This document shows, piece after piece, positions 2,188 to 51,723 of a DNA stretch of 64,000 bases (positions are counted from its first letter, which is position 1; every line of letters starts with the position of its first letter). Made by a program: the position numbers and the translations under genes. The notes under the pieces were generated by a model. It was not told the origin of the DNA, searched no databases, and saw only the letters and a program-made list of their open reading frames with translations. The stretch is from Candidatus Heimdallarchaeota archaeon (GTDB lineage: Archaea > Asgardarchaeota > Heimdallarchaeia > Hodarchaeales > Hodarchaeaceae): assembly GCA_011364965.1 (NCBI GenBank), contig RDOB01000003.1, forward strand, positions 496,939 to 560,938, in the 5' to 3' direction.

Positions 2188-3597
2188 CTATTCTTTGAGT
2201 AAAAAATGAATCACTTTTTCTTCTATTTTCTCTATGGTATTAAAATCAATATTTTTTTCGATATATTCTACCAATAGGCTAAGTTTTCCAGCACAGGTTA
2301 CCGCTCCTACAACTAAATTAACCATTACTAAAGGAAACATACCACCAGGATTCATGATCAAACGATCTAACTCTAATGTTCCATATTTTCGTGGAAAATC
2401 TAAGCGCGTGAGATTTGTCAGTGCTATTCCTAAAAAGGTCTTATCTAACGAACTCATTTTTTCTCTTTTAAGAATAGATGACACCATATCATCTTGGTTG
2501 CTGAATGTAGAGAATTTCTTATACCGTGGAGAGTTTGATGGGACAAATTTCCCTAATAGCTTATAACAAAGCGATTCTATAATACCTGGCTCAAGGTAAC
2601 TCCATGTTTCTAGCTCATTGAATAGATTCTTGTTATTATAAAGAGAATTCACCTTTTGATGAAGTTTTCGAGCATTATCCCAGAAATTCATTTTATTATT
2701 ATACTTTAACTTCACCTTAACCCCGCCAGCAAAATAACCCATAGCTTCCCCTGCTGGCTTTAGAATGCGATCTCTCACACTAGCAGCAATTACTACATAT
2801 GGATTAACAGTATTGCCTTCAAGATTATATTGAGCACCTAAAAATGCGGCAATTAAGGCTGAATTTACTGTTACGCGTTCCTTTCTACAACGCTCAACCA
2901 AAACGGAAGTTTGAGCTTCAGTTAGTTCTATAGAGAGAATTTGATGTTTATAGGTGTTCCAATATGCTTCACTCAGAATCATATAATCTTCCTGATCAAA
3001 GAATATAGGGGATTTTAACCAGTTTTTATTAAATCGGTTAATAAAATATTTACTAATAGGATTAACAGAAACTTCTTTCGGTATAGTATCCTTATCAATT
3101 GGGATTGGGTCAGGTAATACCTCTACTTCTCGTGTAGGATCTCCCAGATGAGTTATTAGATCTCTTGCAAGATAAGCTAGCGACATCCCATCACATATAA
3201 TATGATGGCATAAAATAATTAATTCAGATACTTCTGGAGAATAGATTAATATAAAACGAATAGCAGGACGCTCTTCAAAGTCAAAAGGAATTTTGCAGAC
3301 ATCATGAACTTTCTTCCTCCAATGTGCATCCGATTCGCGTCTTACGATTTCTATTGGAATTTCTTTAACTCCTTCTGATGTAAACCATAGGTTATGATCA
3401 TTATCCTCACAAATTCGAACCCTGAGGTTCAGGTGTCTCTGTTGGACTTTATTAATAGCTTCTCTGAACAAATTCTCGGAAATTACGCCTTTAATTCTAG
3501 CAACCATTGTGACAATAGCAAAAGGGGATCGATTAAACACACGTTCTAGAGGAGTTATTCTACGTTCGTATTTCTTAACTTTTAAAGTATCCTTCAT
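2188..3597 (-). CDS. Stand-alone condensation-domain / CoA-dependent acyltransferase (PapA5/alcohol acetyltransferase-like)
   Basis: HHIICDGMS matches the HHxxxDG catalytic motif; RHLNLRVRI, CRKERVTVNSAL and LTNLTRL segments are typical of this fold. Confidence 0.85.
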   Translation of the reverse strand: MKDTLKVKKYERRITPLERVFNRSPFAIVTMVARIKGVISENLFREAINKVQQRHLNLRVRICEDNDHNLWFTSEGVKEIPIEIVRRESDAHWRKKVHDVCKIPFDFEERPAIRFILIYSPEVSELIILCHHIICDGMSLAYLARDLITHLGDPTREVEVLPDPIPIDKDTIPKEVSVNPISKYFINRFNKNWLKSPIFFDQEDYMILSEAYWNTYKHQILSIELTEAQTSVLVERCRKERVTVNSALIAAFLGAQYNLEGNTVNPYVVIAASVRDRILKPAGEAMGYFAGGVKVKLKYNNKMNFWDNARKLHQKVNSLYNNKNLFNELETWSYLEPGIIESLCYKLLGKFVPSNSPRYKKFSTFSNQDDMVSSILKREKMSSLDKTFLGIALTNLTRLDFPRKYGTLELDRLIMNPGGMFPLVMVNLVVGAVTCAGKLSLLVEYIEKNIDFNTIEKIEEKVIHFLLKE

Positions 3598-3905: not shown

Positions 3906-5060
3906 ATGAAACCTGATCCTATTAAAAAGAATTTTATTAAATTAATGGATGAAATCCATACAGGATTATTATTTCCAAAGAATTATTTTGGTTGTATGAT
4001 GGCTGTATTCATTGAGCAAGAACCTACAACTCAAGATCGCATTAAAGAGTTAACAGGATATTCTAAAACAACAATTTCTCAAATGCTAAAACTAATACAG
4101 GTAAATTTCCCTCTAAAACAAATTAAAAAGATTGGAACAAGGAAAAAGTTCTATAAAATTGATATCAGTACCGAAGATTTTATGATTGTTTTTCTTACAA
4201 TGATTATTGATACATATAAGGATAAAATAGATTTTCTCATTCCATTGATAAAAGAAATAGACCCCTACACACACAACCACCCAAGATTTAACAATTTAAA
4301 GCAATTTTTAGAAGCATATTACAGATTTTCAACTCTTTTCATCAATCTTCTGGTTGATACAGCTGATGAATTTGGAGATATGATTAAAACAGGAAAAATT
4401 AAATCAACAGATCTCTCCAATATAGATATTCTAAATTCCCAAGAAGCTTTGAACTACATTCAAAATCTTTTAAATCCCCCAATACCACCTCAACACTTTT
4501 CGGAAAGGCCAATTATGGATAAAAAATTAGCTGAATTATATTCACAGTTCAAAAATAAATTCTTTCAGAAATTCCGAGAAAATTTAACAATAGCTAGGTC
4601 TCAAACGGAAGTCGCGAGAGTAATAATTGGAACAGAGATGCTCTTAGAGAAACGGCCTATTTCACAAGAAGAGATTAGAAAAGCTACTAATTTCCAAAGA
4701 AGTACCATATCCAATGCTTTGAAAATATTGTTAGAAAGGAAAATGATACTACTAATTAAACAGCCCCACATTAGAAAAAAGTACTATTTAATGGTTCAAT
4801 CATGGGACACTAGGACTATTAATAGATTTAAAATCAATATTAATTATGCTAATGAAATGAAAGAAAAAATTAGAAGTCTAATTGAAAATATTGAACCTGA
4901 AGATACAAATAGTGAGAAAGAAGTATTGAAGGAATTCCTAGAGCAGATTCATTATTCCTACGACCAGTTTGAACAATATTTCAAGCTTCTTGAAGTAAAA
5001 TATCTTAATAGTAGAGTTAAAGAATACATGGAGATGAATAAACTTAATTCTTCAAAGTAG
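3906..5060 (+). CDS. Tandem GbsR/MarR-like winged-helix transcriptional regulator
   Basis: Two HTH-wing repeats: EPTTQDRIKELTGYSKTTISQMLK...GTRKKFY and RPISQEEIRKATNFQRSTISNALK...HIRKKYY; divergent from the acyltransferase. Confidence 0.75.
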   Translation: MKPDPIKKNFIKLMDEIHTGLLFPKNYFGCMMAVFIEQEPTTQDRIKELTGYSKTTISQMLKLIQVNFPLKQIKKIGTRKKFYKIDISTEDFMIVFLTMIIDTYKDKIDFLIPLIKEIDPYTHNHPRFNNLKQFLEAYYRFSTLFINLLVDTADEFGDMIKTGKIKSTDLSNIDILNSQEALNYIQNLLNPPIPPQHFSERPIMDKKLAELYSQFKNKFFQKFRENLTIARSQTEVARVIIGTEMLLEKRPISQEEIRKATNFQRSTISNALKILLERKMILLIKQPHIRKKYYLMVQSWDTRTINRFKININYANEMKEKIRSLIENIEPEDTNSEKEVLKEFLEQIHYSYDQFEQYFKLLEVKYLNSRVKEYMEMNKLNSSK

Positions 5061-5374: not shown

Positions 5375-6685
5375 ATGAATTCAACAAACCAAAGCGATGA
5401 TATAACAAATTACAAAATTCAACTAGAAACAATTTCATCTTTCAGCACACCAATAGAATGCTATGCATTAACGATCGGAAAAATCACCAAAGATATTCCT
5501 CAACTAGTATTGAGCTGTTATAAAGATAATTTGCTTGTAATGAACCCAGATGGGAATCTAGCGACGGAATTAGAATGGTCAACAAATTTTACATGTGTAA
5601 CAATTGGTAAACTAGCGAGTTCAAAGAATATCATCTCTGGAAGTCTCGATGGCACCGTTAGAGTTATGAATTCGCGGGGAGCTCTCATCTGGACGAAAGA
5701 TCTAGGTCTGAACGCTCCAATCAAAAATATAACAATAGGAAATATGAATGGGACTGAAAGTTCACAATTGCTAGTTGCAACTGGGGAAATCAACGTTGCT
5801 ATACTGCTAGATAAATCTGGAGAAATACTTTGGAAAAAACAAATGGAAAATCGTATTGTTGGGTCAGATATTGGAGTTATTCTCCCAAATGGAAACCCAA
5901 TGGCTTTAATTTTCGAAGCAAATGGCACTTTAAATTTAATTAATCTTGAGGGTGAAATTGTAGAGAGGTATAATTTCAATAATAAAGTTGCAAATGGTTT
6001 ACTAATGTCCTATGGGAATTTGAAATTTATAATTACTACCGAAAAGGAAAATATTTCATTCTGGAAAATAACAGATAAACTTAACCTACTCTTTTCTACT
6101 AAATGGAAGGGAAGGATTAGGAAAATCTATGCAAGCAAAATTTTTGATTCGGAAAATGATTGTTTAGCAATTATGACCAAGAATGGAGAAATTTCTATTT
6201 CAAGAGTCATAGTAACTCGTTATGACGAAGATAGGAAGGCTTTTAATGCAATTCAATACTTTGATCCTGGCGTAAGTCTAGAAAAATTACGATCAATCAT
6301 ATTAGACCTATTAAAGAGTTTTGGAGTGGCCGGTATCCCGATTAATAGAATTCATCAGTCCTATATTGAGAGAACGAAAAGTTTAGTAAGTTATCAGGAG
6401 TTCTACAAAGATCTACTTGCCATACAATCCAGTGGAAAACTTGGCGGACGTATTGACACTTCAGGAACCCCAGATACTGAATCTGATGATATATTGATAA
6501 TTAATACTGATAAGTTCTTTTGTATGGCCTGCAATGGTCAATATTCAGTGTTATCTCGTCACTCTCAATGCGACCAATGCTTAAGATTCCTCTGTGAAGA
6601 ATGCTACTCCGCTCGTGAGGCTGTTGGGTTTATCGAATGTCCTTATTGTCAAGCTTCAGCTTCTCACTTTCGTAAAATCACTTAA
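5375..6685 (+). CDS. Beta-propeller (WD40/FG-GAP-like) + winged helix + 8-Cys FYVE/RING-like zinc finger protein
   Basis: Propeller blades (IISGSLDGTVRVMNSRGALIW; LLDKSGEILW), a helical wHTH-like segment ending SGKLGGRID, and C-terminal CMAC-x12-CDQC-x4-CEEC-x11-CPYC. Confidence 0.7.
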   Translation: MNSTNQSDDITNYKIQLETISSFSTPIECYALTIGKITKDIPQLVLSCYKDNLLVMNPDGNLATELEWSTNFTCVTIGKLASSKNIISGSLDGTVRVMNSRGALIWTKDLGLNAPIKNITIGNMNGTESSQLLVATGEINVAILLDKSGEILWKKQMENRIVGSDIGVILPNGNPMALIFEANGTLNLINLEGEIVERYNFNNKVANGLLMSYGNLKFIITTEKENISFWKITDKLNLLFSTKWKGRIRKIYASKIFDSENDCLAIMTKNGEISISRVIVTRYDEDRKAFNAIQYFDPGVSLEKLRSIILDLLKSFGVAGIPINRIHQSYIERTKSLVSYQEFYKDLLAIQSSGKLGGRIDTSGTPDTESDDILIINTDKFFCMACNGQYSVLSRHSQCDQCLRFLCEECYSAREAVGFIECPYCQASASHFRKIT

Positions 6686-6734: not shown

Positions 6735-8222
6735 TTAATCTTCCCAGAATGAATCATCTAACTTTGAAGATTCTTTCTTGGCATCTTCCTGAAGAACATT
6801 CAACATACTCTTAAAGGCACGTGTTAAATCTCCCACTTCATCATCCTTATTTTCAAGTTCACTGTCGATTTGTAAATCTAAATCGGATAAGAGATCTTCC
6901 CGTATTGTATCGGTCGCCATTTTAGAAGCTATTGTAGTTAAGTGGTTGATAGGTTCAATAATCCTAGCAGACAACCATGTACCAATACTGAGTGAAAGAA
7001 AGGCAGCAAAACCTATAGTTATAATTACTTGAATTATAGTAGTCAAGGTTGCAGCCTGAATTCGGCTTTGAAGAGGAGAAACTGAAGCTAGAGCTTCTTC
7101 CTCTGGTACAATTATCAAACAAATGTAATCCCCTTTTCCAACTGAATTGAAGGCGAGATAAAATGTTTTCCCATTTCGAGTGTATTCTATGACTCCCGAG
7201 GAATCTCCAGAGGTTATTACGGTAATTTGATATTCTGTAATTGCTGGTTGACCGTTAATATTGACTTCAACCTCATCAAGAGTTGGTAAATCATCGTTAG
7301 GATTTACCGCGGTCCATTCTGGATGCGCGATAACCGTTCCAGATTGTTGAATTAACACAGCATATCCTGTATCTAGTATCTGAATGTTAATGATCTTTTC
7401 CTTGATACTTTCAATTGTGATATCTGCAAAGATACATCCCAACAAGACACTAGTAGATGGATGGTATATGGCCTTTCCTATAGTAATTAGTAATGCTCCA
7501 TCTATAGGATCGAAATAAGGTGCAGTAAAGACGATATCTCCATTTCCTTGTCTTACTTCTGAATACCAATCCTCTTGAGTAGCGTAAAAAGGGTCTGATA
7601 CTCGTTCCTGATCAGTTCCTCCTACCACACTCCCAGGATAATTTATAAAGAGATCAGATGTCTCAAAAGCGATGTATAGCCAACGGATTTCTGGAGCATT
7701 CAAATGGATGCTCTGAAAGATGTAATCCATATGAGCCATTCGTTGGATTGTATCATTTAAACTGGGATCAGCCTCAAGGAGAGTAAGATAGTTGGAAGAA
7801 TCAGATCCTGGAAAATAATAACTAGCGTAACTCCAAGAAAGATACACATCATAAAGTGAGTCCAAATAGGTGTCATTAGGATAGAGTTCTAATCCTCGAT
7901 CATATTCAAAGAAATAGTCGTAAAATACGGTTCTGTTTGTGTACCGAGAATCCAGGTGGAATAGATTCTCACATTCTTCAGCCATAGCGTTAACATAAGC
8001 CTCTGCACTACTTAATTTTTGGTTTACAATGAGAGAATTTTGGATTGCTGTTTGTTCAATATTCTCTTGAATTTGGGTACTCAATGCATCAGTGCTCATA
8101 GAGGTTGTTGTTTGGCCTACAAATCCTACAAATAAGGTACTGATTGAACCAATCAATATTAAAGAAACGAGACTGAAAATAACAAAACTAATGATTATAT
8201 TTTGTTTTATACTTCTTGCCAT
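6735..8222 (-). CDS. Membrane sensor TM-dCache_1-TM-HAMP with no output domain
   Basis: N-terminal TM, Cache motifs (EDWY, FTAPYFD, ADIT, GYAVLIQQSGTVIAHP), second TM, HAMP (IIEPINHLT...DEVGDLTRAFKSML), then about 20 residues and a stop. GGAGG RBS. Confidence 0.88.
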   Translation of the reverse strand: MARSIKQNIIISFVIFSLVSLILIGSISTLFVGFVGQTTTSMSTDALSTQIQENIEQTAIQNSLIVNQKLSSAEAYVNAMAEECENLFHLDSRYTNRTVFYDYFFEYDRGLELYPNDTYLDSLYDVYLSWSYASYYFPGSDSSNYLTLLEADPSLNDTIQRMAHMDYIFQSIHLNAPEIRWLYIAFETSDLFINYPGSVVGGTDQERVSDPFYATQEDWYSEVRQGNGDIVFTAPYFDPIDGALLITIGKAIYHPSTSVLLGCIFADITIESIKEKIINIQILDTGYAVLIQQSGTVIAHPEWTAVNPNDDLPTLDEVEVNINGQPAITEYQITVITSGDSSGVIEYTRNGKTFYLAFNSVGKGDYICLIIVPEEEALASVSPLQSRIQAATLTTIIQVIITIGFAAFLSLSIGTWLSARIIEPINHLTTIASKMATDTIREDLLSDLDLQIDSELENKDDEVGDLTRAFKSMLNVLQEDAKKESSKLDDSFWED

Positions 8223-8233
8223 CTTAATTCCTC

Positions 8234-10984
8234 CTATACATCCAATACATCAAACCCTTCGACATCGACTTCTCCCATAACTTCTCTTATTTCTTTGAAA
8301 GCATTATCTATTGCCGTACTAATAGAAATACTAGGATCAGAAACGTCTATATACCGGCCACGAGGGGTCATGTCGCAGAGCTCACGAAGTTTAGGTGCTA
8401 GTGCCTTCACTTCTGATCCCACACCTACAATGACTATATTAATAGTCAAAAGATTCTCGTCAATAAAATCAGGTATTGATTGTGCCATTATTCTAGTGAA
8501 GATATCAGGTATAAGACTAGACCGTCTTTTTCGCTCAAGTGAAAATCTATGACTTTTATTATCTTCGCCATCAGTTAATGCTATGAGCCACTTCTGTTCG
8601 TTGCCTTTTTCGTTATTTAAAAAGATTAACGCGTCTCCCAACGCATCATAAAATGCAGTCATACCATCAGGATATTTTAAACTTGAAATTGTTTTGAGAA
8701 TTGTGCTTTCTCGGTTACGTACATCCCCTAGTGGCAACAATGTTTTAGATTCTGAGGAAAAAATAACAAGGCCAACTTTATCTTGAGGATTAATTTGATC
8801 TTGGAACAATTTTCTGGTTCCTTTTACAACAGATCTAATCTTAGAACCATCCATCGAACCAGAATAATCTAAAACAAATAAAGCCATTTTTGGCATAATC
8901 AACTTTTTCCTAATATTCGCTGCAGAAACTTTTGCTCGGTGACTCTCTGTAGAACGATCTAATTCATCATACGTTGAGGCCATACGATCAAGGCATTTTA
9001 AAGCAATATTTACATCATCCACTGATTTAGCTAAGTCAAATGATTTTTGAAGAAGTTTTAATCCTTCTTCGTGTTTGGCCTGTACAATATGGAAAATTGC
9101 ATATTTCAAATAACTGTGAGCAAGTCCACGTGTTTCATTATTCTTTTCCGCAAGATGAATAGCCTCTTTATATTCCCTCTCTGCTTTATCAAAGTCCCCT
9201 AAACGTTCATGGATTATCCCAAGGTTACCAATTCGAGTGATTAAACCTTTAGTATTATTGATTTCCTCATCATAAGCTTTTGCTCTTTCCAAAAGCTGCA
9301 AACTCATTTGATAAGCTTCACGGTCGAGATACAATAGGCCAAGATTATTAAGGCGAGAAGCTAAGCCTTTCTTGTCTCCTTGTTTCTCACCAATATCAAT
9401 AGCTTCCTGATAATGTTCCCGAGCCCTGTTAAAATCATTCCAAGCTCGATAGATGTTGCCAAGGTTATTTTTCGCTATGGCTATTCCTCGTTCGTTTTTC
9501 GTGGTTGTAAAGAGGGTGAGGGCTTTTTGGTAGTTTTGGTATGCGCGTTTAAGATCACCTCTATAATAGTCTGTATTTCCAAAACGTAGAGATGTTAATA
9601 GATTATCAAATGCTGAATGCAATGTTGCTACTTCCTTCCCCATACTTCGTGGATTCCCACGTAAATCTCTTGATAAATCGCCTTCTGCTATAAAATTTAC
9701 CATGCTAGTAAGTTCTTTAACAGGTTGTACAATTTTATTTGACATATATGAACCTGCTACAACGACTCCTATGATTACTACCGATAAAGCTAAGATAAAT
9801 ACCATCGTTTGTTGAATAGCTAGATTATTAATCGTATTTCTAATAGCTATGGCTGATGCAATTATATCTTGTTCTGGTACGACAATACCCAAAGAATATC
9901 CAGTTGTATTAATTGGAATGTAGGAAATATACCATGTTTTGCCCATCTTAGCGTAAGGTTCCGTCACAATTTGACCAGAAATCATTTTTGGTAAAATATT
10001 GGATTCAAAGGAAGTTTTTTCGGTAACTGATTGGCCAAATTCCAACTCTCCGAGAGTTGGGACTTCTTCAGCTTCGGGATCGGCTTCAGGGTGGGAAATA
10101 ACATTTCCCTGTGAATCAATCATAAAAGCATACCCATTATCCAGAACTTCCACTCCTAAAATAGCATCATTAATAACATCAATTGTAATATCTGCACTCA
10201 CAACTCCAATCAAAGATCCGTTGGAAAAGTGGGAAGGCCGGCCTATTGACATCAATAATCCTGCAGGATCCCAATAAGGGGAAGTAAATGCTGTAGAATC
10301 ATCATCCAAGCTTGCTGCGTTCGTATACCATTCTTCTGCATGAGGATCGTAATCAAATCCCGTTGTTTCATAAAAATCTATACACCATGACATACTATCA
10401 TAAGGATAGTTCTTAAATAAGTGCCCATCTCCTTCAAAACCGGCATAAAGCCATACATAATTGCGATTTGCTTTGTGCAAAGATCTAAACATATTATCCA
10501 TATTTGATGCGCTGTTTAGTATTTCCTGCATTTGAGAACTAAGATCGAAGGGATCATTCCCTCTCATATGCTCCTTGGGGAGATAATAACAGCTAACATC
10601 AAATGAGATGTAAGATTCATAATCCGAATCATAAGCTAGTCCAGGAACGTTATATCCTGTTTCTGCAAATTCTAAAGCAGAATCCCAATAATAAGAATGA
10701 CCAGGAGTGATATTCACTTCCCCATTAAAGAGCGATTCAGTATATCGATCCAGCATTTTGATTTCTGATTCATACTGTTTGAATGTTTCATCAATGAAAA
10801 GAGCTTCATCTGATGCAATACGCTCAAGATTTGCAATGGAATCAGCTCTAAGGGCATCACTTGAATCTTGAGAATTTTCCTGTGATAATAATAAAATCTG
10901 AGTACCGCTAAGTAATGCCAGAAAAATTACGGGAACAACTAATAATGTCATAAATACAACTAAAATTTTTCTCTGAAGGTTCAA
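8234..10984 (-). CDS. Membrane receptor TM-dCache_1-TM-HAMP-TPR(x~6)-vWA
   Basis: Cache (EEWY, FTSPYWD, SADIT, GYAFMIDSQGNVISHP), HAMP (IVQPVKELT...IAEGDLS...EVATLHSAFDNL), TPRs (NNLGNIY, NNLGLLY, GNLGIIH), vWA MIDAS (DYSGS...T...LTDGED). Confidence 0.9.
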   Translation of the reverse strand: MNLQRKILVVFMTLLVVPVIFLALLSGTQILLLSQENSQDSSDALRADSIANLERIASDEALFIDETFKQYESEIKMLDRYTESLFNGEVNITPGHSYYWDSALEFAETGYNVPGLAYDSDYESYISFDVSCYYLPKEHMRGNDPFDLSSQMQEILNSASNMDNMFRSLHKANRNYVWLYAGFEGDGHLFKNYPYDSMSWCIDFYETTGFDYDPHAEEWYTNAASLDDDSTAFTSPYWDPAGLLMSIGRPSHFSNGSLIGVVSADITIDVINDAILGVEVLDNGYAFMIDSQGNVISHPEADPEAEEVPTLGELEFGQSVTEKTSFESNILPKMISGQIVTEPYAKMGKTWYISYIPINTTGYSLGIVVPEQDIIASAIAIRNTINNLAIQQTMVFILALSVVIIGVVVAGSYMSNKIVQPVKELTSMVNFIAEGDLSRDLRGNPRSMGKEVATLHSAFDNLLTSLRFGNTDYYRGDLKRAYQNYQKALTLFTTTKNERGIAIAKNNLGNIYRAWNDFNRAREHYQEAIDIGEKQGDKKGLASRLNNLGLLYLDREAYQMSLQLLERAKAYDEEINNTKGLITRIGNLGIIHERLGDFDKAEREYKEAIHLAEKNNETRGLAHSYLKYAIFHIVQAKHEEGLKLLQKSFDLAKSVDDVNIALKCLDRMASTYDELDRSTESHRAKVSAANIRKKLIMPKMALFVLDYSGSMDGSKIRSVVKGTRKLFQDQINPQDKVGLVIFSSESKTLLPLGDVRNRESTILKTISSLKYPDGMTAFYDALGDALIFLNNEKGNEQKWLIALTDGEDNKSHRFSLERKRRSSLIPDIFTRIMAQSIPDFIDENLLTINIVIVGVGSEVKALAPKLRELCDMTPRGRYIDVSDPSISISTAIDNAFKEIREVMGEVDVEGFDVLDV

Positions 10985-11154: not shown

Positions 11155-13062
11155 ATGAAATCTACCGAATGGACTATTAATGACTCTCAGAACGTCTATG
11201 GAATAGGAAAAACTTTTCGGGAGTTTAATTTCCTAGAAATTAATTCCCAGGGAGAATTATGCTTGAGAATTAAAGACGAAATAATTTCATTCAAAGAAAT
11301 TCTATCCCGTCTTCATAAACAAATCACATGGACGGATATTGATCAATGTCCTTCATTAACCCTACGGATACCACAGCTGGTTGAATATCAAATTGCCAAA
11401 CTAAACCAATCTTTTTCAAAAGCACTCAATGAGTATAATTATAAAGGAGAGTTCACTGCTGTTTATCCTATTAAAGTAAATCAGCAGAAACATGCCATTA
11501 ATTCGGTATTAAAAAGCAAATTTATAAAATATGGACTTGAAGTGGGAACAAAAGCTGAATTTCTTATAACCCTAAGAGCCCTTAAAGACCATACTGATAG
11601 ATATTTAGTTTGCAATGGGGTAAAGGATTTAGAATATTTAGGATTAGCTATTAAAAAGCTTCAGGAAGGGTGGAATGTCCTCATATCGGTTGAAACCTTT
11701 AGAGAATTGAAAACTCTTCTCAATTTAACTACAGATCCATCAATCTTGAAATTGAGCTTGCGATTAAAACCCTATTTTTCTGTGAGTGGACACTGGGCGC
11801 ACTCATCAGGAAGGGACTCGAAATTTGGATTGTCTATCGGTGAATTAACAGAAGTTTTAACTTACCTAGAGGAAACTAATAATAAAAATATCGTTGTGGC
11901 TCTTCATGCTCATATTGGGTCTCAGATTACATCTCTTGAAGACTTCAAATTTTTAGCCCAATATCTCACTATATTGTATAAGGAATTTAGAAATAAAGGG
12001 TTACATAATCTTCACATATTAGACTTTGGTGGAGGGCTTTCAATAGATTATGAAGGAAGAATTACCGACAAAAATCCAGACACCTTTGATACTTATGCGA
12101 AGCATATAGTTGAAGGGATTGTAACAACAATAGATGATTTTGATCACCCTGATATCATGATTGAAACAGGTAGGGCTATTACTGCTCTTTCATCCATTGT
12201 ACTTGCTCAAATTCTTGAAATAAAAGATATTTTCCCAGAAGGAAAGATTAAGGATGAGGAAAAGGCTTTTGTTGAAGAATGGAAAAAGAGAATTCAAAAA
12301 ATTACTACAGTAGATGAATTCCGAACCACGTGGTTTGAGTTATTAGGTTATGATGCTAAAAAGAATTCATCTTTAAGAACTACTTCCGAGTTATTTCATC
12401 ATGAAATCCTAGTGAGCAAAATTCGTAGGCTATTTCGAAAAGAATTGGGAAAGGAGTTCTATCTGAAGACCCTACAACAATTCATAAGCGACCCAAGCCT
12501 TAATCTGCTTTTTACTCAAGCAGAGAAATATGCTCTTTGTAATTTCTCTGTCTTTAATAGCGCTTGTGATCATATTCTAGTTAAGCAATATTTTCCTATT
12601 TTTCCAATAGAATTTCTTGATAAACAACCAGAAACTATAGTTAGAATTGTAGATATTACTTGTGACTCTGATGGCGAGATATCCCAATTTATCACCAAAA
12701 GAACAGATACTCACCCTAAATTTACCCTTGATCATTACCCGCTCCAAATTCCAGTCCCTGTAACACTGAAAGGAATCCCCGTTCCCAATTGTGATGGTTT
12801 GAATGAATCTTATTTTGCAATTGGACTTTTAGGAGCTTATCAGGATATTATAGAATTCGATCATAATCTTCTAGGTGATCTTCCAGACGCATTAATTCAG
12901 TTAGATGGAGATGATTGGAAAATTGAATGGTCTTCAGACCCTGAAAGTCCACAAAAATTAATTACAAAAATGGGATACAAAGGAGATGAAATTTTCCCAA
13001 ATATGGGAAAAATGTCTTATGCAAAGGACTCGTGGAACAGAAAGGAGAATAATACTGATTAA
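11155..13062 (+). CDS. speA: Biosynthetic arginine decarboxylase (PLP fold III)
   Basis: VYPIKVNQ (PLP lysine), GLEVGTKAE, CNGVKD, SKFGL, HAHIGSQI, DFGGGL, ETGRA, NFSVFNS, DITCDSDG, GAYQ and HNL motifs. Confidence 0.93.
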   Translation: MKSTEWTINDSQNVYGIGKTFREFNFLEINSQGELCLRIKDEIISFKEILSRLHKQITWTDIDQCPSLTLRIPQLVEYQIAKLNQSFSKALNEYNYKGEFTAVYPIKVNQQKHAINSVLKSKFIKYGLEVGTKAEFLITLRALKDHTDRYLVCNGVKDLEYLGLAIKKLQEGWNVLISVETFRELKTLLNLTTDPSILKLSLRLKPYFSVSGHWAHSSGRDSKFGLSIGELTEVLTYLEETNNKNIVVALHAHIGSQITSLEDFKFLAQYLTILYKEFRNKGLHNLHILDFGGGLSIDYEGRITDKNPDTFDTYAKHIVEGIVTTIDDFDHPDIMIETGRAITALSSIVLAQILEIKDIFPEGKIKDEEKAFVEEWKKRIQKITTVDEFRTTWFELLGYDAKKNSSLRTTSELFHHEILVSKIRRLFRKELGKEFYLKTLQQFISDPSLNLLFTQAEKYALCNFSVFNSACDHILVKQYFPIFPIEFLDKQPETIVRIVDITCDSDGEISQFITKRTDTHPKFTLDHYPLQIPVPVTLKGIPVPNCDGLNESYFAIGLLGAYQDIIEFDHNLLGDLPDALIQLDGDDWKIEWSSDPESPQKLITKMGYKGDEIFPNMGKMSYAKDSWNRKENNTD

Positions 13063-14091: not shown

Positions 14092-14163
14092 TCTTTTTCA
14101 CTTTGCCTTAGAGAGAGTTTAATCAAAAATAAATAATCCAGAAAAGTAAATTTCTGATGACCA

Positions 14164-15156
14164 TCATGCAAGAGAATCCAAAACTGATTGTGGTAAATAA
14201 AAAGCAAACTTGCAGTTCTCATCTCCGTTAAGAACTGATGACAATAACTGCACTTTAACAGGTTGATCTAATACGGCTTCCCAATAGTTTTTGAAGTAAC
14301 CTGCGCTACAATTACAGAAAATTGGAGGAATTTGTTGATCTTCCATCAAAAAAGCTTCACGTATCCAAGGACAATGACAGTAATAATATCGTTTCTTTTG
14401 TTCATTGGGCTCATTAAGATACTGTTTAATCATATAAGGGGTTTTTTTTATCAAAACCTGGTTTCCTTCGCGTATTCCTGTTTCAATTGATTGATCATTT
14501 TTAACAAAATCGATAACTTGTTGATCAACTTCTTGTGTATAAAAAAGAGTCCCCTCTTCATGATGTTTCTCGAGAGTCTTTACATAGTTTTGATGTTTGA
14601 GTCGTAAAAATTCATCAATATCCTTACTTTTAAGGAATTCTTCCCGTGGTTTTTTATAAGCCTCTCTATACTTATCACGTAATCCATCTGCAAGGAATTC
14701 AACGCATTTTTTTCTGTCAACTTGAGCAAGGAATCGTTCTATCAATTTTTTGGTGATTTCAGGCTTCTTTTGCGGATTTGTACCAAGAGGGGGAAATGCG
14801 ATGTCTTTAAAGATAATATTTCTTATTTCATCCCCAAATTCTTTAGTTAAACGTTCCGAAAAGTTGACCAATACCTCCTTGCCATCAATAATTTCAATTG
14901 AAGCAATCAATAATTGATGATTCTTAATATAATGACCAAAACGCACAAGAGCAAGGTAATTATCAAATGAGTTCTTATTTTTTTCAATTAAATGAGTTGA
15001 GTAATTATAAACATCCTCATATGTTGCATAAATGATTGATTTATCCTTTTCAGATAGAAATTGATTAAAATCGTTAATAGTATCCACAGTATCAGTAATC
15101 TTTTCCAAGTCTATTTTTCTTTCCATCAAGAAGTCTGTAAATCCATCTACATCCAT
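14164..15156 (-). CDS. DUF6144-like / V4R-clan Cys-containing protein
   Basis: YYCHCPWIR...FCNCSAGY...PVKVQLLSSVLNGDENCKFAF. Start moved to ATG 15156, which follows a GGTGA RBS. Confidence 0.7.
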   Translation of the reverse strand: MDVDGFTDFLMERKIDLEKITDTVDTINDFNQFLSEKDKSIIYATYEDVYNYSTHLIEKNKNSFDNYLALVRFGHYIKNHQLLIASIEIIDGKEVLVNFSERLTKEFGDEIRNIIFKDIAFPPLGTNPQKKPEITKKLIERFLAQVDRKKCVEFLADGLRDKYREAYKKPREEFLKSKDIDEFLRLKHQNYVKTLEKHHEEGTLFYTQEVDQQVIDFVKNDQSIETGIREGNQVLIKKTPYMIKQYLNEPNEQKKRYYYCHCPWIREAFLMEDQQIPPIFCNCSAGYFKNYWEAVLDQPVKVQLLSSVLNGDENCKFAFYLPQSVLDSLA

Positions 15157-15462
15157 GTAATCACCCAAGATTTGAAAAATTACTAATCTAAATGACAATT
15201 AATGACAATAATTGGCATAATTTATTAGCACTATTGTGTTGGCAATTTTCTCTTTCATTATATTTTTTTTGAAAATTAATTTGAATCTAATGCGTTGGAT
15301 GGAAGAACTAATAATCTAAACCAGAAGAATTATTAAGGTTTCCTTTTAACTCACTAATTGACAAATTTATCAACACAAAGTTCAAAAAAAGTATTCTTTC
15401 AATTATCCAAACTCCAATCAAAAGAAAGATTAAGAATGATTTTTCGAATTTGGTGACTTTTT

Positions 15463-16155
15463 CTAATAGATCTTAGGTACGAGACGAAATTTGACTCGGT
15501 TCATGTATTCCTTATATCCTGGGAGGTGATTTACTAGCATATTTTCTTCTATTCGGATTCTATAAAGAAGCAAGAGAATAAATAATAAAGATCCTAATAA
15601 ACCGACCAACGATCCCAATGCAAGCGGAATGCAGATACAGAAAATTACTACTGTAAAATACATTGGATGTCTTATATAGCGATATGGACCAGTAGTTATC
15701 AGTTCATGGTCTTTGTGAATAACCAATCCTTTGGAAGCATATCTATTAACCTTATTAACATAGGTCATGGCAATTAACCCAAATATCAAGCCCATAAATC
15801 CAAGGATCTCAATATACCAAGGAAGGGGAGAGATCCTTAAAGCGTGATCAATACCAGGAAAAATCATGAGAAACACAAACACTGGTACAGCGAGAATCAT
15901 GAAAGTTTTATCAGGGAAAATTTTGGTATCTGGATCATCGGTAGTATATTTGCTTCGTTTCATTAATATCGCTGGATCTTTGATTAGAGAATAGAGTAAA
16001 TATAAGAATATATATACGAAAAAAATGATGATAAACAACCAACCTTCTAACCAAGAAAAATCATTAGCTGGAAGGAGGATAAGCGCTCCAAAGATAATAA
16101 ACGTTATTGGAGTGTAGAAAATCATGATTAATAAGATTTTAAGGCGGTCATTCAT
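15463..16155 (-). CDS. Isoprenylcysteine carboxyl methyltransferase (ICMT/PEMT) family membrane protein
   Basis: Multi-TM; HELITTGPYRYIRHPMY, RIRIEENML, GYKEY...RLVPKIY. Confidence 0.9.
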   Translation of the reverse strand: MNDRLKILLIMIFYTPITFIIFGALILLPANDFSWLEGWLFIIIFFVYIFLYLLYSLIKDPAILMKRSKYTTDDPDTKIFPDKTFMILAVPVFVFLMIFPGIDHALRISPLPWYIEILGFMGLIFGLIAMTYVNKVNRYASKGLVIHKDHELITTGPYRYIRHPMYFTVVIFCICIPLALGSLVGLLGSLLFILLLLYRIRIEENMLVNHLPGYKEYMNRVKFRLVPKIY

Positions 16156-26707: not shown

Positions 26708-27412
26708 ATGATAAAAACAATATTTAAAAAATTTATTCGGAAAAAAGCATGGGGAACTCACAAAAAAGCCATAACTCAGGTATTAATACCGAGATGCAGA
26801 CGGGATGGAGTACCAGAGTACGGTCGTTTCACTTACAAAGATATAGAACGGATAATATTCCAAACAGAATCGAATATTAGAGAGTTAATGTCTTATTTCA
26901 AAAACCTTGATAATATTGGTAATTATATGATGCAATATGCTGGATTAATATATTTAGCTATATATAGAGCTCTAAAAGATGAGAACATAGATTCTACTTA
27001 TGCTATGAATCTAATTGGGGATATTCAATGGCAATATCGTATGAATAGTAATGGTTTATTTCCTATACTTGATCCGTTAAGACTGAAATTAGCCAAATTT
27101 AGAGCAAAAAGCCCAATAGATTTTCTGGGAAAACGTCTTGAAGACGCGTTGAAATACCCATATACCGAACCAGGCTATAAAGCAAAACTTTACAAAGATA
27201 AGGATGTATATTGTATGAATCTCTATTCATGTACGGTTTTTGATTTCTATAAACAATTCGGACAGGAAGAGATAACCTTGTTCAGAAGAACTTGGTGTAC
27301 CTATGATTTTGCAGTTGCAGAATATCTTGTTGAGGGTGGAAAATATGAAAGAGAACATACACTCTCCGATGGGGATGAGGTATGTGATATGAAATTTTTT
27401 ATTGGAAAGTAA
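26708..27412 (+). CDS. ATC-hydrolase-like (V4R clan) protein, paralog of 51001-51723
   Basis: YSC.V.DFY...WCTYD...REHTLSDGDEVCD three-Cys pattern. Confidence 0.78.
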   Translation: MIKTIFKKFIRKKAWGTHKKAITQVLIPRCRRDGVPEYGRFTYKDIERIIFQTESNIRELMSYFKNLDNIGNYMMQYAGLIYLAIYRALKDENIDSTYAMNLIGDIQWQYRMNSNGLFPILDPLRLKLAKFRAKSPIDFLGKRLEDALKYPYTEPGYKAKLYKDKDVYCMNLYSCTVFDFYKQFGQEEITLFRRTWCTYDFAVAEYLVEGGKYEREHTLSDGDEVCDMKFFIGK

Positions 27413-51000: not shown

Positions 51001-51723
51001 TTAATTTCTTTTACTAATGAAATACCTCTGGTCACACACTTCATCACCATCAGATAGCGTGTGTTCTCTCTGATATTTACCACCTTCAACAAGATGTTCA
51101 GCGACGGAATAATCATAAGTACACCAACTTCTTCTGAAAAAAGTCATCTCTTCTTGCCCAAATTGCGTATAAAAATCATGAACAGCACATGAATAGATAT
51201 CCATATGATAAACGTCTCCCTCTTTATACAATTTTATTTTATAGCCTGGTTCACTGTATGGAAATTTCAAGGCATCTTCAAGGCGCTTTCCCAGAAAATC
51301 AGTCGGATTTTTCGCCCTAAATCTAGCTAATTTTAGTCTTAATGGGTCAAGTATTGGTATCACGCCCTTCATGTTCACACGAAGTTGCCATATCAAGTCT
51401 GCAACCAAGTTCGTGGCGTAAGCGGGATCTATTTTTTCTTTTACCATAGCTCTGTATAAAGCTAAGTGTATCAATCCACCATATTCATTCATGTAATTAC
51501 CAAGATTATCGTAGTCTTTGAAATAAGGCATTAATTCTTTAATATTCGATTTTGTTTGAAATATTATCCGTTCTATATCTTTGTATGTAAAACGACCTTG
51601 TTCAGGTACTCCATCCTGCCTGCATCTTGGAGTCAATATCTGGACTATTGCTTTTTTGTGAACTCCCCATGCCTTTCTACGGATTATTTTTTTGCCTAGT
51701 GGTTTGAAAATGGGTATTCTCAT
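51001..51723 (-). CDS. ATC-hydrolase-like (V4R clan) protein, paralog of 26708-27412
   Basis: Roughly 70% identical by eye to 26708-27412, e.g. GRFTYKDIERIIFQT, PILDPLRLKLA, REHTLSDGDEVCD. Confidence 0.8.
   Translation of the reverse strand: MRIPIFKPLGKKIIRRKAWGVHKKAIVQILTPRCRQDGVPEQGRFTYKDIERIIFQTKSNIKELMPYFKDYDNLGNYMNEYGGLIHLALYRAMVKEKIDPAYATNLVADLIWQLRVNMKGVIPILDPLRLKLARFRAKNPTDFLGKRLEDALKFPYSEPGYKIKLYKEGDVYHMDIYSCAVHDFYTQFGQEEMTFFRRSWCTYDYSVAEHLVEGGKYQREHTLSDGDEVCDQRYFISKRN

Follow-up and report, generated by a model that had tools for sequence, protein, structure and literature searches.

Two neighbouring genes in an Asgard archaeon of the Hodarchaeales type encode a pair of membrane sensors, A and B, for which only protein-docking domains are found inside the cell, and which look like an undescribed way of signalling across a membrane. 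The pair is kept together in several Asgard classes and in giant viruses, is fused into one protein in some protists, and appears to dock a beta-propeller protein encoded next door. The pair lies in a 64,000-nucleotide stretch of contig RDOB01000003.1 (positions 496,939 to 560,938; hereafter the window), in which the relevant features are as follows.

8234..10984 (-): gene A, 916 aa (TTG start), TM1-dCache_1-TM2-HAMP-TPR-vWA and a short tail; the output-bearing subunit
9830..10879 (-): dCache sensor of A, residues 36-385, with pocket residues Y212, E217 (Arg126 of PctA replaced by Glu), W219, Y220, Y237, D239 and D265 (motif from PMC8915833)
9584..9742 (-): HAMP of A, residues 415-467, running straight into TPR1 through the junction R467-F-G469-N470 (R, G and N invariant in 75 archaeal homologues)
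8900..9583 (-): TPR arm of A, residues 468-695, LGN/Pins-like 40-residue repeats with an Asn ladder (N507, N547)
8918..8968 (-): last TPR loop and capping helix, residues 673-689 including H682; predicted docking site of the propeller
8273..8896 (-): vWA domain of A, residues 697-904, MIDAS D706-x-S708-x-S710, T776, D805
8237..8272 (-): conserved C-terminal tail of A (hydrophobic-x-V-E pattern, E909), poorly modelled
6735..8222 (-): gene B, 495 aa, TM1-dCache_1-TM2-HAMP and a short tail, no output domain; presumed second subunit of a heterodimer, its pocket also Arg-to-Glu
5375..6685 (+): soluble beta-propeller (weak BBS2/7/9 and FG-GAP likeness in orthologues) with a helical part and a FYVE-type zinc finger; convergent with B, 49 bp between stops; single copy; predicted partner of A
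11155..13062 (+): PLP-dependent biosynthetic arginine decarboxylase SpeA (PRK05354, 385 bits over a cut-off of 369), divergent from A, 170 bp between starts; the only arginine decarboxylase detected in the genome

A first-pass annotation, made from the sequence alone, had described two co-oriented genes 11 bp apart, both TM-dCache-TM-HAMP, the first continuing into about six TPRs and a vWA domain with an intact MIDAS, and this observation is confirmed. The two genes are 11 bp apart and a GGAGG-like element overlaps the stop codon of A. Profile searches found dCache_1 (E 8e-17), TPR_12 (E 4e-25) and VWA (E 2e-13) in A, and dCache_1 (E 7e-20) and HAMP (E 4e-06) in B. Although the HAMP of A falls below the Pfam threshold, it aligns with that of B (26% identity over residues 2-467, E 7e-45), hits NCBIfam HAMP regions and models as helix-connector-helix. 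Each protein has two strong TM segments. The TPR part comprises 11 helices at 20-residue spacing, i.e. five 40-residue repeats plus a capping helix, so that a count of about six is fair. The MIDAS residues are present in 75/75 archaeal and 51-52/53 eukaryote or virus homologues. In agreement with the annotation, no HATPase_c, response regulator, protein kinase, cyclase or MCP match lies in the window, in a search that did not include phosphatases, although the genome has histidine kinases, regulators and MCPs elsewhere.

The first-pass annotation had named three findings that would count against it, and none of them was borne out. The fusion is not an assembly chimera, as contigs of other runs are at least 99% identical with no joints and 80 other genomes carry the same fusion. 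The vWA is not outside the cell: mean K+R is 2.7 before and 0.2 after TM1, and 0.8 before and 2.1 after TM2, and N-glycosylation sequons are twice as dense in the Cache part, placing dCache outside and vWA inside. Finally, literature searches, which did not extend to subscription papers, found no description of the architecture.

To determine whether A and B are conserved as a unit, we examined their homologues and neighbourhoods. The A family occurs in 118/379 Asgard genomes, and homologues occur in jakobids, a metamonad, stramenopiles and chytrids; a profile search for more eukaryotic members returned only three family proteins. B directly follows A in 76/76 archaeal loci with room, mostly 7-14 bp apart, and the two are adjacent in 6/6 giant-virus or virus-like loci. 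B and A are fused in that order in Mallomonas and in other proteins of ~1600 aa, in which 9/9 first halves score better on the archaeal B profile and 10/11 second halves score better on the A profile. In a Lokiarchaeia clade both genes have lost dCache, leaving A at 575 aa, yet B stays as a 150-aa TM-TM-HAMP stub (6/6 loci). Taken together, these findings make an A:B heterodimer likely. We note that related genomes are not independent, so these counts and those that follow stand for a handful of events. The HAMP-TPR-vWA arm also occurs in one protein behind a different multi-TM input, as a portable output module would.

The beta-propeller gene, which the first-pass annotation had missed, is adjacent in 53/81 loci in three different arrangements. 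It occurs in 96 Asgard genomes, 92 of which have A; in the window's genus the same 5 of 22 genomes have both, and in one family (f19) 15 of 129 genomes have both, with 18 having A and 17 the propeller. Modelling of the complex predicted that the propeller binds the last TPR helix of A, with a score of 0.78 against 0.00 for the best control; the mark was reached by 58/80 solved and 2/110 mismatched pairs, runs agreed in at least 90% of contacts, and the partner pLDDT was at least 86. The interface residue H682 is kept in 54/54 propeller-bearing sequences against 0/20 propeller-less archaea and 0/53 eukaryote or virus sequences, none of which were in the model's alignment, and its contact Y30 is invariant in 51/51 propellers. 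However, the propeller was not detected in several A-bearing families, nor in the viral loci, so it cannot be the universal output.

Also missed was SpeA, which is in the locus in 49 of 81 cases, always beside an A with a non-Arg, mostly acidic pocket, whereas none of 7 Arg-type loci has it. Of 101 genomes with SpeA, 86 have A. In one clade a non-homologous pyruvoyl arginine decarboxylase takes its place, lying head-to-head with A in two loci (L077 and L094), of which L077 has an acidic pocket. SpeA is absent from Lokiarchaeia. The carboxyl-binding Arg of the dCache_1AA amino-acid sensor motif (YxxxxRxWY...Y...D) is replaced by Glu (E217) in both A and B of the window, and is present in 7/75 archaeal and 51/53 eukaryote or virus A sequences. 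These findings suggest agmatine or a polyamine as ligand, but no polyamine-binding dCache motif has been defined (PMC10589655), so this suggestion rests on charge and neighbourhood. A sigma-70 promoter scan was uninformative for an archaeon.

The eukaryote and virus homologues, likewise missed before, led us to ask how they relate to the archaeal ones. FastTree split archaeal from eukaryote and virus sequences at 98, without a root. In two quick trees the eukaryotic copies were nested with Heimdallarchaeia (SH-aLRT 96-98), but an AU test did not reject Asgard monophyly (p-AU 0.099). The 80 best GTDB loci are all archaeal, and a small, probably non-Asgard archaeal clade exists. A Bathyarchaeia-labelled copy is 74% identical to a Heimdallarchaeota copy, and a Zixibacteria-labelled one sits inside that clade, so both are probably misbinned or recent transfers.

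We favour the following explanation, to which we assign a probability of roughly 0.6. A and B would form a heterodimeric transmembrane receptor, each giving one dCache sensor outside, two TM helices and half of one HAMP bundle, with only A continuing into the cytoplasm. Binding of a small amine (in this lineage most likely agmatine or a polyamine; in lineages that keep the Arg motif, an amino acid) would shift the HAMP, which is rigidly joined to TPR1, and change what the TPR-vWA arm binds, such that the output is protein docking and not chemistry. In this view the capping helix of the TPR arm holds the propeller as an adaptor, and the metal site of the vWA engages a further, as yet unidentified acidic partner. 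In Hodarchaeales, Thorarchaeia and related groups the circuit would be tied to arginine decarboxylase and so probably tunes agmatine or polyamine synthesis to outside supply. Our analysis establishes the architecture, topology, gene linkage, fusion, co-occurrence and residue patterns, whereas the contact between A and the propeller is predicted by modelling and the remainder, signalling included, is inferred without experimental or expression data: the heterodimer is likely, the propeller is probably a physical partner, ligand-controlled docking as the signal is somewhat more likely than not, an amine ligand is about as likely as not, and control of SpeA is tentative.

The interpretation offered by the first-pass annotation, that ligand binding is converted into protein recruitment by an integrin-like switch in a cytoplasmic vWA, is partly supported. 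A real, conserved, undescribed receptor pair with a non-enzymatic cytoplasmic output is supported, but the best-evidenced partner is predicted to dock on the last TPR helix rather than on the MIDAS, and the integrin-like switch remains an analogy. The annotation had pointed to MoxR AAA+ or small-GTPase partners; neither recurs beside the pair in 81 neighbourhoods, and the MoxR genes of the genome lie elsewhere, two of them beside their own vWA genes, although action in trans is not excluded.

We considered other explanations. The pair may be a membrane scaffold, or cargo for a primitive coat-like adaptor, rather than a switch, with the propeller binding constitutively, as BBS1/9 bind TPR subunits, and linking the receptor to membrane sorting, clustering or turnover. 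In support of this possibility, the Lokiarchaeia orthologue of the propeller is predicted to fold as propeller, beta-sandwich, platform and zinc ribbon, its nine best Foldseek hits are BBS9, BBS2, BBS7 and BBS1, the window's copy has the FYVE-type finger, and the sensor can be lost while B and the propeller stay. However, the appendage domains occur in one clade only, with other lineages carrying other C-terminal domains; the propeller alone matches many WD40 proteins equally (a VIA alignment of the propeller model covered only the propeller and ranked beta'-COP, NHL and WDR5 propellers equally); and ligand pockets and HAMP are conserved. We regard this reading as unlikely, although it is compatible with signalling. 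It is also possible, but doubtful, that the vWA is the real output and the propeller accessory, the vWA being either an integrin-like switch pulled by the conserved tail that recruits an AAA+ ATPase or SpeA itself, or a metal-dependent enzyme. The MIDAS, D735, W799, D808 and the tail are conserved in all lineages, including those without the propeller, and we infer that the TPR Asn ladder could hold the acidic tail as LGN and kinesin-light-chain TPRs hold peptides. Yet no MoxR or other AAA+ recurs in the 81 neighbourhoods, the tail is unmodelled (pLDDT below 50), its Glu is replaced in Thorarchaeia, and we know of no precedent for an enzymatic vWA.

That A and B are independent homodimeric sensors for different ligands that merely share an operon appears improbable. 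They are paralogues, each with a full sensor and HAMP, and most known dCache-HAMP receptors are homodimers, but B has no output, persists without its sensor, is fused to A in eukaryotes and is never missing beside A in the loci with room. Least likely is that the pair is an archaeal alpha2delta/CACHD1, an auxiliary subunit of a channel. The domain set is the same (two dCache and one vWA across the pair), CACHD1 is the top PDB hit of the B profile, and some B proteins hit Pfam VWA_N, but in alpha2delta the vWA is inserted in the extracellular dCache (PMC8915833), whereas here it lies across the membrane, after TM2, HAMP and TPR, the family vWA profile scores alpha2delta at 37 bits against 73 for ITIH4, and no channel gene recurs nearby. 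The topology contradicts this reading, while a shared origin of the Cache domains remains possible; direct descent of alpha2delta from this family is not favoured by the vWA, and the Cache part ranks CACHD1 high only by summing two stretches.

Receptor classes in prokaryotes are defined by their output, and none described has a TPR-vWA arm or an obligatory output-less partner; the input half of the present system is conventional, whereas the output and the pairing are not. The family gives a concrete candidate for a plasma-membrane receptor passed from Asgard archaea to eukaryotes, whereas eukaryotic dCache domains have been attributed to bacterial transfer (PMC8915833). It is directly testable, as the soluble domains can be expressed, the cultured Ca. 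Lokiarchaeum ossiferum carries A, B and the propeller, with a dCache domain of the Arg type, and a single residue, H682, is named for the predicted adaptor contact.

Among known systems, dCache_1-HAMP chemoreceptors (PctA/B/C, Mlp24/37, and the polyamine sensors McpU and TlpQ) and Cache histidine kinases (Methanosarcina mmHK1S-Z2/Z3) share the TM-dCache-TM-HAMP input and most pocket residues, and the pair belongs with dCache_1-HAMP transmembrane receptors. It differs in having no MCP, kinase, cyclase or phosphatase domain, in its two different subunits, one without output, in the direct joining of HAMP to TPR, and in the replacement of Arg126 by Glu in both subunits. LGN/Pins (GPSM2) and kinesin-light-chain TPR domains are the best natural sequence and fold matches of the TPR arm and share its Asn ladder, but the arm is membrane-anchored behind HAMP, has only five and a half repeats and lacks GoLoco or kinesin parts. 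With the BBSome (BBS1/2/7/9 propeller-GAE-platform with BBS4/8 TPR; PMC7018512), the Lokiarchaeia orthologue of the propeller shares domain order and ranks BBS subunits first, and the propeller centre is predicted to bind a TPR end; however, identity is 9-12%, the window's copy lacks the appendage domains, the predicted contact is the C-terminal capping helix and not the N-terminus, and the TPR belongs to the receptor itself. Integrin I domains and MoxR-vWA pairs share the intact MIDAS, but here the vWA is cytoplasmic, with no integrin beta chain and no linked AAA+ ATPase. Alpha2delta subunits and CACHD1 likewise combine dCache with a MIDAS vWA, and eukaryotic members of the present family keep the YxxxxRxWY motif (51/53 eukaryote or virus sequences have the Arg), but in the present family the vWA is cytoplasmic and not inserted in dCache, and HAMP and TPR are present. 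As the vWA was found inserted in all eukaryotic dCache_1 proteins (PMC8915833), this family is an exception.

We first asked whether the paired receptor genes in the window are as the first-pass annotation described them. The two open reading frames were found where it had placed them, on the minus strand and 11 bp apart:

8234-10984, minus strand: gene A, 916 aa
6735-8222, minus strand: gene B, 495 aa

Pfam searches gave dCache_1, TPR and VWA for A, and dCache_1 and HAMP for B, and the two proteins are paralogues over TM-dCache-TM-HAMP (26% identity). The AlphaFold model (mean pLDDT 85) shows HAMP helix 2 ending at residue 467 and eleven TPR helices starting at once, followed by a vWA fold, the MIDAS of which is intact and nearly invariant. 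Charge bias and sequon density place dCache outside the cell and TPR-vWA inside, and other sequencing runs together with 80 other genomes exclude the possibility that the fusion is a chimera. No kinase, regulator, cyclase or MCP lies in the window. The observation made in the first-pass annotation is therefore confirmed. Elsewhere in the window we note two similar ORFs of about 235 aa on opposite strands, which are apparently paralogues (26708-27412 and 51001-51723), and a stand-alone condensation/acyltransferase-domain gene divergent from a tandem MarR-type regulator (2188-3597 and 3906-5060).

To determine how widely the system is distributed, we searched for A in other genomes. The closest named relatives are from Ca. 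Hodarchaeum and other Hodarchaeales. A is found in 118 of 379 Asgard genomes and in 34 of 83 genera, but patchily, being present in 5 of 22 genomes of the window's genus and in 67 of 80 genomes of one family that corresponds to the Thorarchaeia; it has one copy in this genome. The same architecture, with the same HAMP-TPR junction, occurs in Stygiella, Andalucia, Trimastix, Platysulcus, Mallomonas and Phlyctochytrium, without the dCache part in the Chytriomyces gene model, and in giant-virus contigs. It also occurs in a small group of probably non-Asgard archaea (loci L072, L077, L078 and L094, of which L077 is labelled Methanobacteriota). The 80 best loci of a GTDB scan, which rank ahead of 22 weaker ones, were all archaeal.

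Several findings indicate that A and B are one unit. B directly follows A in all 76 archaeal loci with room for it, and lies beside A in six viral or virus-like contigs. Several eukaryotic and viral proteins of about 1600 residues are B+A fusions, as judged by assigning their halves with archaeal profiles. In one Lokiarchaeia clade both genes have lost dCache, a multi-TM gene sits upstream or is fused, and B is kept as a 150-residue TM-TM-HAMP stub. The multi-TM protein (loci L085-L090, for example L088:6302-7027) is 241-251 aa long, has 4-6 TM helices and no Pfam family, and is fused to the sensor-less A in the protein P0158; it is probably a replacement input domain. Since HAMP is a two-chain bundle, and since B usually ends 15-30 residues after its EIGxL motif, the simplest reading, inferred here from sequence and gene linkage, is a heterodimer in which only one chain carries the bulky arm.

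A third component is encoded by the gene that converges on B:

5375-6685, convergent gene: beta-propeller with a zinc finger

Orthologues of this gene are adjacent in 53 of 81 loci, lying upstream in Thorarchaeia, downstream in Lokiarchaeia and in convergent orientation in Hodarchaeales. Genome-wide, 92 of 96 genomes with the propeller have A. To ask whether the propeller might contact A, we modelled A(462-916) together with it, and obtained a score of 0.78 against 0.00 for the best of three controls. That mark was reached by 58 of 80 solved and 2 of 110 mismatched pairs (a calibration that fits this case only roughly), the runs agree in at least 90% of contacts, and partner pLDDT is at least 86. 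The predicted interface places A residues 673-689 in the propeller's face. H682, within this stretch, is present in 54 of 54 propeller-bearing sequences and absent from 20 propeller-less archaea and 53 eukaryote or virus sequences, which the model never saw. The Lokiarchaeia orthologue is predicted to fold as propeller, beta-sandwich, platform and zinc ribbon and ranks BBS9, 2, 7 and 1 first, although the propeller alone is generic. This order of domains, which is that of BBS2/7/9, is seen in the orthologues at L088:9409-11238 and L069:9559-11433, and the Atlas shows further ~555-aa BBS2/7-like clusters in Promethearchaeota. Propeller-TPR contacts are solved in the BBSome, so some memory effect in the prediction is possible, but there it is the TPR N-terminus that binds (PMC7018512).

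The sensor pockets and the neighbouring genes bear on the identity of the ligand. Both pockets keep the amino-group side of the dCache_1AA motif (PMC8915833) but replace the carboxyl-binding Arg by Glu. The arginine decarboxylase SpeA is in the locus in 49 cases, always with a non-Arg pocket, and never in the 7 Arg-type loci; 86 of 101 SpeA genomes have A. In two loci of the probably non-Asgard clade, an unrelated pyruvoyl-dependent arginine decarboxylase sits head-to-head with A (L094:493-1053 and L077:7143-7700). These patterns rest on few independent events, but they point to agmatine or a polyamine as the ligand here, and to amino acids in the Arg-type lineages, which include nearly all eukaryotic and viral copies. 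One Hodarchaeales genome (bin272) has two copies of the pair, at loci L006 and L066, one Glu-type with SpeA and propeller and one Arg-type without. In 30 Thorarchaeia loci (L032:446-1525 and 29 others) a histone-deacetylase-family gene is divergent from the operon; this family includes acetylpolyamine amidohydrolases. In one Heimdallarchaeia family an AbrB-like gene overlaps the start of A and a second PLP decarboxylase follows SpeA (L010:7561-8004 and 14130-15512), and at L095:4406-7878 a Band_7 plus zinc-ribbon gene and a faint DO-GTPase2 gene lie upstream of A.

Whereas the architecture, the linkage of the genes and the residue patterns are read directly from sequence, the mechanism is inferred. 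Most likely an amine binds the heterodimer, the HAMP shifts, and the attached TPR-vWA arm changes its protein contacts; in this view the propeller would be an adaptor on the arm and the MIDAS would bind an as yet unidentified target. Because the propeller and SpeA each drop out in some lineages while the MIDAS, the Asn ladder and the tail stay, the ancestral output probably lies in the arm itself. The interpretation offered in the first-pass annotation, that ligand binding is converted into a protein-recruitment signal, is supported in part. Alternatively, the pair may serve as a constitutive coat-like scaffold, its vWA may be the centre of a switch or an enzyme, A and B may be independent homodimers, or the system may have an alpha2delta-like role.

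In trees of the sensor-HAMP part rooted on the paralogue, eukaryote and virus A sequences fall among Heimdallarchaeia copies (SH-aLRT 96-98), and their B sequences fall among Asgard B. The AU test does not reject Asgard monophyly (p 0.099), so inheritance is plausible rather than shown. Of the two copies in bin272, the Arg-type lies nearest the eukaryotic copies in the trees. In L072 and L077 the A and B sensors group with each other rather than with their orthologues, as after gene conversion or re-duplication.

No paper that we found describes this architecture. Gumerov et al. (PMC8915833) state that all eukaryotic dCache_1 proteins they found carry an inserted vWA, which the family described here does not.
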